A DNA stretch of 64,000 nt from Octopus vulgaris (Eukaryota), in assembly GCA_951406725.2 (NCBI GenBank), contig OX597814.1, positions 31,806,001-31,870,000 on the forward strand, written 5' to 3'. The notes under the pieces were generated by a model. It was not told where the DNA came from. It worked only from the letters and a program-made list of their open reading frames with translations, and ran no database searches. This document shows positions 17,520 through 52,947 of this stretch, in pieces; within the stretch, counting starts at the first letter, position 1, and the number at the start of each line of letters is the position of its first letter. A program made the position numbers and the translations under genes.

Positions 17520-18100
17520 GGGTGGCAAGCTGGCAGAATCGTTAGCACGCCGGGCGAAATGTCTAACGGTATTTCGTCTGCTGTTACGTTCTGAGTTCGA
17601 ATTCCGCCGAGGTCGACTTTGCCTTTCATCCTTTCGGGGTCGATAAATTAAGTACCAGTTACACACTGGAGTCGATGTAATCGACTTAATACCTTTGTCT
17701 GTCCTTGTTTGTCCCCTCTATGTTTAGCCATTTGTGGGTAATAAAGAAATAGGTATTTCGTCTGCCGTTACATTCTGAGTTCAAATTCCGCCGAGGTCGA
17801 CTTTGCCTTTCATCCTTTCGGGGTCGATAAAATTAAGAACCAGTTACGCACTGGGATCGATATAATCGACTTAATCCGTTTGTCTGTCCTTGTTTTCCCC
17901 CTCTGTGTTTAGCCCCTTGTGGGTAGTAAAGAAATAGGTATTTCGTCTGCCGTTACATTCTGAGTTCAAATTTCGCAGAGGTCGACTTTGCCTTTCATCC
18001 TTTCAGGGTCGATAAATTAATTACCAGTTGCGTACTGGGGTCGATCTAATCGACTGGCCCCCTCCCAAAAAATGTCGGGCCTTGTGCCTAGAGTAGAATA
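17520..18100 (+). mobile_element. SINE family C: one head plus three tandem ~185 bp body units
   Basis: The unit GGTATTTCGTCTGC...AAAGAAATA repeats at ~17568, 17752 and 17937. Confidence 0.9.
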
Positions 18101-21021: not shown

Positions 21022-23100
21022 AGTGAGAATTTACAAATAAAAAAAAAAACAGAAGACGATGACGGTGTGCGTAAACAACATACGGATGTATGAGTTTAAC
21101 GATCGGGAAGTGGTGAGAAAGTCTACGCTCTTCGACAAAAAGGAATACAGAAAGAAACAGGGAGCGAAAAGGCAAAGGTTTAGTGGTTAGCGACCTATTA
21201 TGGCGAATGCCGAGCAGAGGGGTCACACAGGAGAGCTAGGTAGAAGGGGAGATAATATGTACGTATGGAAGAGAACTGGTGATTTTGACGTGTGTGTATG
21301 TTTGTGTGCATATGTAGGTGTGTGGATGATGGTGTGGCTGCTGGGAAGTGGTCACTGCTAGTGCGTGCGGGGTGGTGTGAAATGGTGTGATGTAATGTGA
21401 TGGTGCGTGTGTGGGTGGGAAGAAGTTTGTGTGAGAGGAAAAGAGGAGAGAGGAGGAGCGTTAGATGAAAAGGGGAGGAGTGTAGACGCCATGAGGGGCA
21501 AAGGAGCGCAGAAAGAAGATTAATACATGTTCACGGCGAAGACGGGAGTCCGGATGGCACCTGTGCAAGGAAAATCCGAACACAGACAGGTGTTGTAAAG
21601 AATGACCGGTAGAGCGGAAATAGCGCGAAGCCGGGGTGTCATTGCCGAGTCGGATGTCTCGGAGGTTTTCCGCGAACCGGTCAGCCAAGCCTCTCGTTTG
21701 ACCGATGTATAAAGAAGGATAGAGAGAGCAGGAGATGCAGTAGATAACGTTGCTAGAAGTGCAGGTGAAGGAGTCAGTGATATGATTGGGTCGATGATGA
21801 GTGCCTGTGAGGAGGGTGGTGTTGTAAAGTTAAGGGCAAGTGCGGCAGTGTGGGTGGGAGCAGCGGAACGAGCCGGGTTGGGAGGTCGGGTCAGGTTGTG
21901 GGCTGACCTAACCTCCCACGTAGATTGTGGGCTCGTTTGAAGGAGGGGAGGAGTCGGTTAGAGAAGATGTGCGATGTGGACGGGTCGAATTTGAGTCGCC
22001 GGAAGGCTTGGAGAATGCTGCGTTGGAGAGGTAGCGTGATGGGGTGGTAGGTGAGGGGAAACGGGAGACGGGTGCAGGAGAGAGAGCAGATGCAATTGAG
22101 AATAGGGATGGAGGGCTTGGTGTGTTTAGGGTGGGAGGAGGAGAATTTGAGGTATGAGTGTGAGTCTGTGTGTTTGTAGTGGATGGAGGTGGTGAGAGTG
22201 GTGTGATGAATGCTGACCAAAACGTCGAGAAAGGCGACTGATGGGTCGGAAATAGTGCCGAGGAAGTGGAGGGCAGAATGGAAAGATTTGACAAGAGATG
22301 AAGTAGTCTATATGTTTGCGGGGGAGTGAGATGGCACCGATGCACTCGTCAATATAACGACCGTATAGTTTGAGAGTGGGTCCAGTGAAACTTGAGAATA
22401 TTTGGACCTTAACGTAGCCAAAGAATAGGTTCGCATAGTTGGGTCCCATTCTCGTTCCTATGGCCACTCCCGAGATTTGCTGGTAAAAATCACCCACGAA
22501 CGAGAAGCAGTTAAGTGAGAGGACATGTTCGTCCAGACGAGGGAGAGTGGATGTGTCAAGTTGGGGGCTGAGTCGAAGGTCAAGGAAATGTTAGAGTGCA
22601 CACAGCCCCTCGTAGTGAGGGATCACGGTGTATAGGCTCTTGATGTCAAGTGTGAAGGGAAGTTTAGAGGGGCCAGGAGAGGAGAAGGAGATGAACAAGC
22701 GAAAAGTACGGTTGGTGCCATGGATGTGAGAGGGGAGGGAAGCCGCTAGAGGGCAAGGACACGGTCAAGATATCTGGAGATGAGTTCGGTGGGGCAGTTG
22801 CCGGCGGAGACGGTGGGTGGCCAGGGTTGTTAGGTTTGTGGATTTTGGGAAGGAAGTAAATGATGGGGGTGCGAGTGGTGCGGACAATGAGGTTAGAGGC
22901 AGTGGGGGAGATGGGAGTAGGAGATGACGTCATGGATAGTGGAGGACACAGTCTGTTGGTAGCTGGGTGTGGGGTTGTAGTGCAAAGGGCAGTGGAATGA
23001 GGTGTCTTGAAGTTGGAGAGCTTCCGTTTTCTAGAGGTCCGTGCCTCACACCACCACGGCTCCAGTCTTGTCTGCCGGTTTTATGACGATGACTATGCGT
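21022..23100 (-). mobile_element. Penelope-like retroelement (Neptune-type): RT + Cys linker + GIY-YIG endonuclease, pseudogenised, with 3' tail
   Basis: IYFLPKIHKPNNPG, FTLDIKSLYTVIPH, GVAIGTRMGPNYANLF, YGRYIDE, CSHPHCRTC, FTCTSSNVIYCISC..LYIGQT, DRFAENLRDIR...RREHVLIFFLRSFAPHG. Confidence 0.95.
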
Positions 23101-24509: not shown

Positions 24510-24715
24510 TAATCCAAACAAGAAAACAAAAAGACAACAACGCAAGGATGTGGAACAAATAAAGTATTATTGGATGCTCAGGAAAGAATGGAAGAAGGAC
24601 GGTTTGACGTTTCGAGCGGAGCTCTTCGTCGGAAACATAGGAGAAAGAAAGATCCCGAGACGGGAGGACAGAGGAAAAAAAATTGCAGTTAGTATTCACG
24701 AGGTCACATACTAAA
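24505..24715 (-). mobile_element. Solo Penelope pLTR-like tail with a minimal hammerhead (24602-24636), ending in (TA)n
   Basis: GTTT-CCGACGA-A-GAGC(TCC)GCTC-GAAA-CG-TC-AAAC. A second copy is at 41476-41690. Confidence 0.7.
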
Positions 24716-40200: not shown

Positions 40201-40733
40201 GTATGTATAGACGTCACACTTATTTCCCTCAGTATGCTTTGCTAACGAAGGCAGTGTCATTAGACTAATCCACAAGTTGATCAATCCAAGGGTATCTGAA
40301 TAATTTTATGAATTTCTGTCAGCCTACTCCCTCGCTTTCGACGTGTGTGTTTTATAAAAGTCATGATTTAGAGTTGTTCGACGATTTAGAGTCTATTTTC
40401 AGAATGCAGGAATAGTAAATTCTGTGCCCTTAATTATAATTGCATTTTATATTACTTTAAATCTCTCTTTCTCACTGAATATATAGGTCTCCTTTGCCGA
40501 ACTGCTAAGTTACAGGGACGTAAATACACCAACATCAGTTGGCAAGTGATGGTGGTGGTGAAGATGGCTGCAAACACAGACACACACATACATGAATATA
40601 TACAAATACACACACACACATAACATATATATATATATGCATATATATACATGCGTATATGTACATAAATACATCTATACGTAGCTGATCGACTTAAGCG
40701 GGGCAGGGCCGTTGTTTATTTATAATGCATTCT

Positions 40734-40779
40734 GGCCTGCTGATGAGTACGTAAGTATGAAATCACTGTGATACAGGTC
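40734..40779 (+). ncRNA. Type I hammerhead ribozyme, copy 1
   Basis: GGCCTG-CTGATGA-GTAC(GTAA)GTAT-GAAA-TCACTGTGA-TA^CAGGTC. Confidence 0.9.
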
Positions 40780-41213
40780 TATATTTTTTAAATGTCTTAC
40801 TTTGAAAAATTGCATTCGGTGGGATTAGTAATATTTTTGGTAGAAATGACTAATTGTCCCTCTTAGCGTTTGGCATGTATATATAATGCCTTCTGGCATG
40901 TATGTATAATGCCCTCTATATATAAATTAATATGTTCAATAAGAAATAATTATTTTCGAAATTTTTTCTCTTATGAGGTTTTTACGCTATCTACCTGACA
41001 ATTTCTTGTTAAGTTTTCCTTATTAAGTAGTTGTCCTTAATTGCTAAATTTTTATTCCGAAAAAACTTTTCCTCTCCCGAAATGCAATTCGTAAAAGTTT
41101 GCCATTTGACCGTATGTAATATATGTAAACTCACCCATGTGCTTCGATGATGTTGAACAGTTAGCTGATCGACTTAAGCGGGGCAGGGTCGTTGTTTATT
41201 TATAATGCATTCT

Positions 41214-41259
41214 GGCCTGCTGATGAGTACGTAAGTATGAAATCACTGTGATACAGGTC
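41214..41259 (+). ncRNA. Type I hammerhead ribozyme, copy 2
   Basis: Identical to copy 1, 480 bp downstream. Confidence 0.9.
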
Positions 41260-41475
41260 TATATTTTTTAAATGTCTTACTTTGAAAAATTGCATTCGGT
41301 GGGATTAGTAATATTTTTGGTAGAAATGACTAATTGTCCCTCTTAGCGTTTGGCATGTATATATAATGCCTTCTGGCATGTATGTATAATGCCCTCTATA
41401 TATAAATTTATATATATATATGCATATATATGCATATATATGTATGTATATATATATATATATATATATAAATAT

Positions 41476-41688
41476 ATAGTTAATCCAAACATGAAAACAC
41501 AAAGAGAAAACGCAACAACGCGAGGACGTGGAACAAATATAGTATTATTGGACGCTAAGGAAGGAAGTGAAGAAGGAGGGTTTAACGTTTCGAGCAGAGC
41601 TCTTCGTCGGAAACATAGGAGAAGGAAAGATCCAGAGAAGGGAACACAGAGGAAAAAAAATCGCCAACGGTACACACGCAGTCACATT

Positions 41689-41690
<2 letters not shown>
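41476..41690 (-). mobile_element. Solo Penelope pLTR-like tail with a minimal hammerhead (41580-41614)
   Basis: Homologous to 24505-24715. Reads GTTTCCGACGAAGAGCTCTGCTCGAAACGTTAAAC. Confidence 0.7.
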
Positions 41691-52107: not shown

Positions 52108-52521
52108 GGCGGCGAACTGACAGAGACGTTAGCACGCCGGGCGAAATGGATAACGGTATTCCGTCTGCCGCTACGTTCTGAGTTCAAATTCCGCTGAGGT
52201 CGACTTTACCTTTCATCCATTCGGGGTCGATAAATTAAGTACCAGTTACGCACTAGGGTCGATGTAATTGATTTAATCCGTGTGTCTGTCCTTGTTTGTC
52301 CTCTCTGTGTTTAGCCCCTTGTGGGTAGTAAATAAATAAGTATTTCGTCTGCCGCTACGTTCTGAGTTCAAATTCCGCCAAGGTTGACTTTGCCTTTCAT
52401 CCTTTCGGGGTCGATAAAATAGCTACCAGTTATGCACTGGTTTCGATATAATCGACTTAATCCCTTTGACTGTCCTTTTTTGTCCCCTCTATGTTTAGCC
52501 CCTTGCGGGTAGTAAAGAAAT
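52108..52521 (+). mobile_element. SINE family C with two tandem body units
   Basis: Junction AAATAAATA|AGTATTTCGTCTGCCG at ~52338. Flanking repeat agaaataat(t/a)gca. Confidence 0.9.
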
Positions 52522-52947
52522 AAGAAATAATAGCATATTCTACCTCAGTCCAAACAGCACTGACTTGAATAAGAAGACCCATTAGTCATTTAAGTCCTAG
52601 ATATACAAAGAGTCACGAATGGGGAAATATTTCACCAGGTAACCTCGATCTAAGATGAGAAATGAGGAAACAACAAAACACACACAGAAGTGTATGATTA
52701 CACATACGCATACACACACGCATACACACACACAAAGAATATCAACGAAACGGAAAATCACACACATACGCAGAGAACATATGCATATAGATTAGCTGAA
52801 GGTATCGGCGTTATTACATTTCCATATTGGTTTTAGATATTAAACACTCATAGAAGGCAGTTTGTGTTTAAATTGGCAGGGTAACTGCAGGTCAAGAAAA
52901 ATAGGCCTACATACGTATATAGATACATAACTACACGCACACACACA

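Follow-up and report, generated by a model that had tools for sequence, protein, structure and literature searches.

The window analysed here (64,000 nt of Octopus vulgaris DNA, contig OX597814.1) carries one copy of a young, non-coding ribozyme element with a 480-nt unit, which is likely copied by rolling circle, by a Penelope-like enzyme primed from both strands; we place this reading at a probability of about 0.6. The element itself is real and young. That it moves in the manner of Penelope-like elements (PLEs), as the initial annotation had proposed, is strongly supported by the paired ends and inverted arms of its insertions, with a presumed enzyme partner.

The entire insertion (40682–41408, forward strand, as are all element features below) is a single arm of 1.5 units, 5′-truncated at 40682. 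The 247-nt direct repeat of the initial annotation was recovered at 40682–40928 and 41162–41408, with a spacing of 480 nt and a single mismatch (40709 C / 41189 T); its two copies, then taken for terminal repeats, are 1.5 turns of a 480-nt tandem unit and no LTR pair, because 5′ ends are variable and whole units occur in tandem. One permuted period (40682–41161, with unit position 1 set at 40682) is thus followed by a partial second one (41162–41408). The unit is non-coding and contains 158 G+C of 480 (under 50%). The initial annotation saw no credible open reading frame, and the longest ORF within the element is indeed 42 aa; an ORF for RT plus GIY-YIG endonuclease, the criterion for an autonomous PLE, is absent from the window element. 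The 3′ end lies at one of two fixed sites of the family, site A (41387–41408; unit position ~241–247; internal copy at 40907–40928), and the other, site B (41030–41055; unit position ~364–374), is internal and unused here. The window copy has the minority one-armed form; a tiny B arm at its 5′ end was looked for and is not evident. Its 3′ flank is a TA microsatellite (41409–41478), the target, and its 5′ flank a CA/TA microsatellite of an older SINE-like repeat (40568–40681); a target-site duplication could not be made out within (TA)n. Since one complete monomer lies between two intact ribozyme motifs, the copy could act as a donor. Beyond the target, a different high-copy repeat adjoins the insertion (41480–41690, reverse strand; also near 24627, reverse strand), which has a degenerate minimal hammerhead-like motif and resembles a PLE 3′ end. 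A SINE-like unit of 184–185 nt is present in tandem at 17568–18055 and 52156–52524.

Scanned with a descriptor on both strands, the window shows exactly two type I hammerheads, with cores at 40740 and 41220 (0/100 in dinucleotide shuffles), so that the complete core per copy, 480 nt apart, stands as first described. The motifs (40734–40779 and 41214–41259) comprise a 6-bp helix I with one G-U pair, a 4-bp helix II with a GUAA loop, the CUGAUGA/GAAA core and an AUA triplet, and have predicted cuts between 40773 and 40774 and between 41253 and 41254, which delimit a predicted cut-to-cut monomer of 480 nt (40774–41253), the candidate circle. The suggested check against the Rfam hammerhead model did not find the motif at any threshold tried: Rfam gave nothing at the gathering score in the window, and hammerhead families were absent from the 49 matches up to E=10 in 40600–41500. 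Helix III is an 11-nt palindrome (40762–40772; second copy at 41242–41252), for which folding energies predict a role as dimerisation arm. The 1-nt loop first assigned to this helix cannot form; as a monomer it has 4 bp and a CUG triloop (+0.8 kcal/mol), against −10.1 kcal/mol for the duplex with the second copy, as expected if helix III depends on dimerisation. Two copies cofolded as a double hammerhead reach −27.3 kcal/mol, vs. −7.8 per monomer fold. The label “minimal” does not fit, because the sizes of helices I and II are canonical: in the available text of PMC4209133 the min-HHR has helix III almost absent, a long helix II and a short helix I, whereas here helix I has 6 bp, helix II 4 bp and helix III an 11-nt palindrome. 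A likeness, from the portions of PMC7229834 and PMC4209133 at hand, exists to the dimeric hammerheads of amphibian satellite 2, in which an unstable palindromic helix III also favours the double hammerhead; compared with these, the palindrome of the element is longer (11–12 nt, with 5 bp on each side in the dimer), and its cutting is predicted.

Folded as a circle, the monomer has an MFE of −119.6 (z −4.9, 60 shuffles), vs. −87.5 for the minus strand, and only the sense strand folds far below shuffles. A long-range complementary pair (40808–40819 with 41077–41089), recognised from sequence and alignment, has both sides altered in one sister family. For the whole unit, a consensus fold of 17 sister stretches is uninformative because the alignment is ragged. 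In the predicted fold of the precursor (727 nt), the active helices have low occupancy (helix I 0.02–0.10, inter-copy helix III 0.05), which counts against the rolling-circle reading and suggests, on predicted structure, that hammerhead cutting may be slow or protein-assisted, as is reported for PLE hammerheads (PMC4209133, in its available part; PMC11167929).

The ribozyme is under constraint, as judged from sequence comparison. Among 18 hand-picked sequences from sister families, double-sided changes affect 6/6 helix I pairs and 3/4 helix II pairs, 95.9% of cells pair, and the covariation score was reached by 0/500 shuffles. The invariance of the core and helix III is partly built in, because most sisters were found by patterns that require both; the palindrome is identical in a sister family found by DNA similarity alone. 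Within the 46-nt ribozyme, only 1 of 54 array-fixed variants occurs, a G-U to G-C change that improves the pair (binomial p=0.03); the deficit relative to unit-private variants (10/148) is not significant (Fisher p=0.29).

Across the searched genome (2.8 Gb, 227 contigs), an end-junction pattern with 211 matches (control 0) indicates at least 211 insertions, and the 43-nt ribozyme core occurs exactly in 326 copies (control 0). The 480-nt period gave 222 matches at 39 scored of 967 candidates, and full-length units are mostly 96–99% identical. Arrays range from fragments to ~31 units; an arm of ~31 near-identical units (15 kb, L136–L137) is still bounded by sites A and B. To judge by the flanks, nearly all insertions lie in (TA)n. 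There are at least eight related hammerhead families, with units of ~420–490 nt where seen and the palindromic helix III common to all; two further patterns yielded 567 and 125 additional matches (controls 0), and several of these families have the same two ends. The retrozyme identity proposed at the outset is upheld by the 326 exact cores together with the compensatory helix changes in sister families, which also supply the other core-conserving copies whose absence would have spoken against it, and the proposal of a recent insertion has likewise gained support.

Insertions were dissected in two samples. The first (51 loci: 39 from the period search and 12 among the first 100 core copies) favours long copies; the second, scored by eye, comprises all 40 unseen loci among 50 B-end rows on contigs C1–C3, so that A/A insertions cannot appear in it. 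The 3′ ends fall at the two fixed sites, ~120 nt apart, and are followed by (TA)n, whereas 5′ ends are variable; both fixed 3′ ends are internal sites and do not coincide with the ribozyme cut. In the first sample, 38/40 two-armed insertions are A/B and 2 have one odd end, 11 loci are one-armed (8 A, 3 B), and none is A/A or B/B. In the second, the far end is A in 29 of the 33 two-armed loci and odd in 4, seven loci have no inverted arm, and B/B was again not found. Taken together, 73/91 loci are two-armed, head-to-head, and 67/73 of these are A/B. Because one-armed copies end at either site, A and B can each prime alone. At the level of sequence, these paired ends are the inverted-copy-plus-tail pattern of Penelope-like insertions, with a longer tail (~120 nt) and a nearly strict one-each rule.

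At the centre of the insertions, the arms overlap mostly by 1–6 nt (39/71 junctions). Their inner ends coincide modulo 480 more often than expected (18/65 within 30 nt, vs. 9.5; 12/65 within 15 nt, permutation p=0.002), which we read as homology between two cDNAs helping to guide their joining. In 20/65 insertions each arm has sequence that the other lacks, and site A bounds the longer arm in 20/38 (first sample). The density of inner ends is higher just downstream of the cut than upstream (12 at positions 93–110, vs. 5.1 expected, in a window picked post hoc); some of the templates may have been cut and linear, or first passes may simply have been short. Mosaic arrays were also considered as a guide to how A and B follow each other on multimeric templates, but this was dropped, since cases are few and conversion near the palindrome centre confounds them.

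Each insertion has essentially one haplotype. Among 133 full units from 43 loci, there are 0.45 substitutions within a locus vs. 7.2 between loci, and at 21 informative sites the opposite arms agree completely in 31/36 loci, vs. 13% of random pairs. Variant calls comprise 126 array-wide (54 distinct), 148 single-unit and 11 mosaic variants. Among the 31 arrays with at least five segments, 100/108 minor alleles are singletons; three loci that align poorly or are degraded contribute 45 of these singletons, and errors of assembly would produce singletons too. Long arrays carry private variants in all of their units (L067, 15/15; L053, 9/9), and in the 31-unit array three variants are singletons and one is shared. 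New variants thus spread from one unit to all in one step, which requires a single-monomer bottleneck followed by re-amplification. Furthermore, the predicted cut site is seamless in 220/220 copies, with no base gained or lost, as would be expected if the template were a covalently closed circle or a precursor that was never cut; template jumping would not be expected to leave it so. These sequence patterns fit one template molecule per insertion, and that this template was circular is likely. The exceptions to uniformity are the mosaic arrays L057, L061 and L038, which count against the circle; at L057:2000–5720 a period-3 mosaic at two sites could stem from a trimer template, local duplication or assembly mixing. 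A signature of A-to-I editing was sought and rejected (array-fixed A>G vs. T>C, 7 vs. 13, no excess). Among the sequencing runs that contain the unit, none is registered as RNA, which counts against the rolling-circle reading; contigs of presumed RNA runs do span the unit, with strand, ends and circles unreadable, and are unused as evidence.

We propose that transcription would run across two hammerheads, and that the palindromic helix III would pair between adjacent copies, with the predicted release of a monomer (40774–41253 in the window copy). A host ligase would close this monomer into a circle, by analogy with published retrozymes. A Penelope-like RT-endonuclease, probably a dimer, would then nick both strands of the (TA)n target and prime a separate cDNA at each of sites A and B on a single RNA, which would account for the observed paired ends. 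Each cDNA would lap the circle for between a fraction of a turn and ~31 turns, yielding the homogeneous arrays that are observed, and the two cDNA ends would join head-to-head via microhomology of 1–6 nt, as seen at the junctions. The one-armed window copy would have been primed at A.

The circle might be dispensable if an uncut linear multimer transcript served as template for Penelope-type twin priming, with the arrays later homogenised and lengthened in DNA by slippage, unequal exchange and conversion, and the hammerhead having another or an occasional role. For an anole PLE, the hammerhead is dispensable and uncut RNA is the main substrate in vitro (PMC11167929); 8/9 Xenopus retrozyme dimers were uncut in vitro, and local amplification by unequal crossover has been proposed (10.64898/2026.07.22.740005, as far as its available text goes). 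All of this weighs against rolling-circle copying, as do the low predicted occupancy of the active fold and the mosaic arrays, and uniform daughters would also be expected from a linear transcript of an already uniform array. Gradual expansion nevertheless predicts variants common to neighbouring units, whereas the minor alleles are overwhelmingly singletons, even in the 31-unit array, and private variants are fixed not only array-wide but in both inverted arms. We consider the linear template unlikely on this balance. Priming might also occur once, the cDNA folding back to copy itself and the other end being resolved by endonuclease or TA annealing, for which a circular template is possible. 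Such self-copying accounts for one haplotype per insertion, for the one-each ends and for the excess of coinciding inner ends, and the tail of PLEs has been ascribed to endonuclease-mediated resolution (PMC8557442, available part). It would need later central deletions to account for the insertions whose arms do not nest, and for the asymmetric arms; site A bounds the longer arm in only about half of the cases, and most junctions are far from symmetric. Fold-back is accordingly the more improbable of these two routes.

Repeated copying of a cut linear monomer by end-to-end template jumping would explain the cluster of inner ends just downstream of the cut, and in 10/28 unbiased A/B insertions the cut site is crossed on neither arm. 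Insertions with both arms short are not significantly in excess (p=0.14), none of the arms terminates precisely at the cut, the 220 cut-site junctions show no gain or loss of a base, and jumps between molecules should mix haplotypes; we regard this as very unlikely. Since PLE insertions are often truncated partial tandems (PMC8557442, in the part available), the unit might be a mere pLTR fragment of an autonomous Penelope element, or else an ordinary satellite with a chance motif. Such an origin is scarcely credible for a unit without an ORF that is repeated head-to-tail up to ~31 times and dispersed with fixed ends to at least 211 sites, with a motif that covaries and is absent from shuffles, and for which no ORF-bearing homologue was found in the loci examined.

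For rolling-circle copying by a Penelope-like enzyme, an autonomous partner was sought among the PLE loci (the decayed PLE of the window and its family, a young Neptune-like family, an older relative, 30 GIY-YIG loci and 16 extended ones) and in 110 stretches surrounding hammerheads of sister or related families; the search was not aimed at Naiad elements, which published work places both in octopuses and at (TA)n. In these PLE loci and hammerhead stretches there is no ORF-bearing element with ends or a pLTR homologous to the unit, and this weighs against the reading. Three Neptune-like PLE families and further GIY-YIG loci have the (TA)n target in common with the unit, but no sequence. The decayed PLE of the window (21461–23080, reverse strand) retains RT and GIY-YIG remnants and has no sequence kinship with the retrozyme; its family comprises 10,916 first-look candidates, some with long open frames. 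A candidate enzyme source is the very young Neptune-like family (L199:1450–6200; L200–L229; L361–L380), which has many identical copies, open frames of 781 aa, a zinc-finger linker before GIY-YIG, a U3-A8 variant of the minimal hammerhead and (TA)n targets. Its two 3′ ends lie 34 nt apart; a terminal inverted arm occurs in only 2/20 loci, both one-each, and this counts against the rolling-circle reading as proposed. PLE fragments near sister or related hammerheads are separate insertions, except for one chimera (L260:5500–7830), in which a 5′-truncated Neptune-like PLE directly abuts a sister retrozyme arm, with no TA in between, inside a single TA-bounded block. It is 1 of 30 loci of that PLE family and, as a single case, speaks for a Penelope-like enzyme; RT template switching is a possible origin. 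At L130:6530–9500, a large inverted-repeat structure of another element lies beside a PLE.

By sequence, the element has the features of metazoan non-LTR retrozymes, as these are described in the available text of PMC7229834 and 10.64898/2026.07.22.740005: non-coding, low-GC tandem units with a type I hammerhead each, dispersed as dimers to multimers, without an LTR pair. Published retrozymes also lack PBS and PPT, and self-cleavage and expression as linear and circular monomer RNA are further hallmarks of the class. The element's monomer of 480 nt compares with 170–400 nt in the former source and 51–972 in the latter. The same portions make no mention of head-to-head arms, of a pair of fixed ends, of targeting to TA or of uniform haplotypes per insertion, all of which the family shows. 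In PMC7229834, circRNA is the hypothesised source of tandem cDNA and PLEs are put forward as candidate mobilisers, and the accessible part of 10.64898/2026.07.22.740005 maps retrozymes to PLE pLTRs by homology, matches 24/57 Xenopus families to known TEs and invokes local amplification. In contrast to that pLTR homology, none was found for the element in the PLE loci examined.

PLEs themselves (PMC8557442, in its available part) insert as 5′-truncated partial tandems with an inverted 5′-truncated copy, in microsatellites, with a tail of 30–40 bp that is often at one end only. The element likewise has an inverted 5′-truncated copy at the 5′ end, a one-end tail and microsatellite or AT-rich targets (PMC8557442; PMC11167929). 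The purified protein of the anole Poseidon PAc, a predicted dimer, cuts and extends both strands in vitro, with two internal RNA start sites that delimit the tail (PMC11167929); the element resembles it in having two internal RT start sites downstream of the hammerhead. It differs from PLEs, as far as these sources extend, in lacking an ORF, in a tail of ~120 nt instead of 30–40, in that about four-fifths of the sampled insertions are two-armed, in its strict one-each rule and in arrays that repeat a short unit for many turns. Chlamys elements such as MRC1 (PMC8557442, same portion) are also non-autonomous PLE passengers, multicopy and head-to-tail; unlike the element, their 3′ end resembles that of autonomous partners, from a clade without canonical hammerheads.

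The literature searched, with supplements outside its scope, holds no report of the 480-nt family or of two-armed retrozyme insertions; the PMC7229834 model figure, the PMC8557442 sequence file and the tables of 10.64898/2026.07.22.740005 may bear on novelty. The origin of retrozyme arrays is debated, one proposal being tandem cDNA made from a circRNA and the other unequal crossover that amplifies units locally, and their mobilisation by PLEs has so far rested on co-occurrence and pLTR homology. The 480-nt family itself bears the PLE integration signature, together with a haplotype uniformity per insertion that extends across both arms and, as sequence evidence, favours the circle route; what is an optional “tail” in PLEs becomes in this family a strict rule of one site per strand. 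More tentatively, a dimeric Penelope-type RT-endonuclease would engage one ribozyme circle at two dedicated sites 120 nt apart, one per target strand, and each cDNA would lap the circle up to ~31 times. The clan of at least eight families, in which the ribozyme and both sites would be kept with no sequence link to a coding element surviving, would then consist of viroid-like circles whose replication exploits a PLE enzyme through structure and not through sequence. Because the 480-nt substrate, two mapped sites, a simple target and intact candidate enzymes are available from the same genome, the mechanism can be reconstituted. Retrozymes are a known class, to which the 480-nt family adds unusually clear genomic evidence on a hypothesised mechanism that is directly testable.
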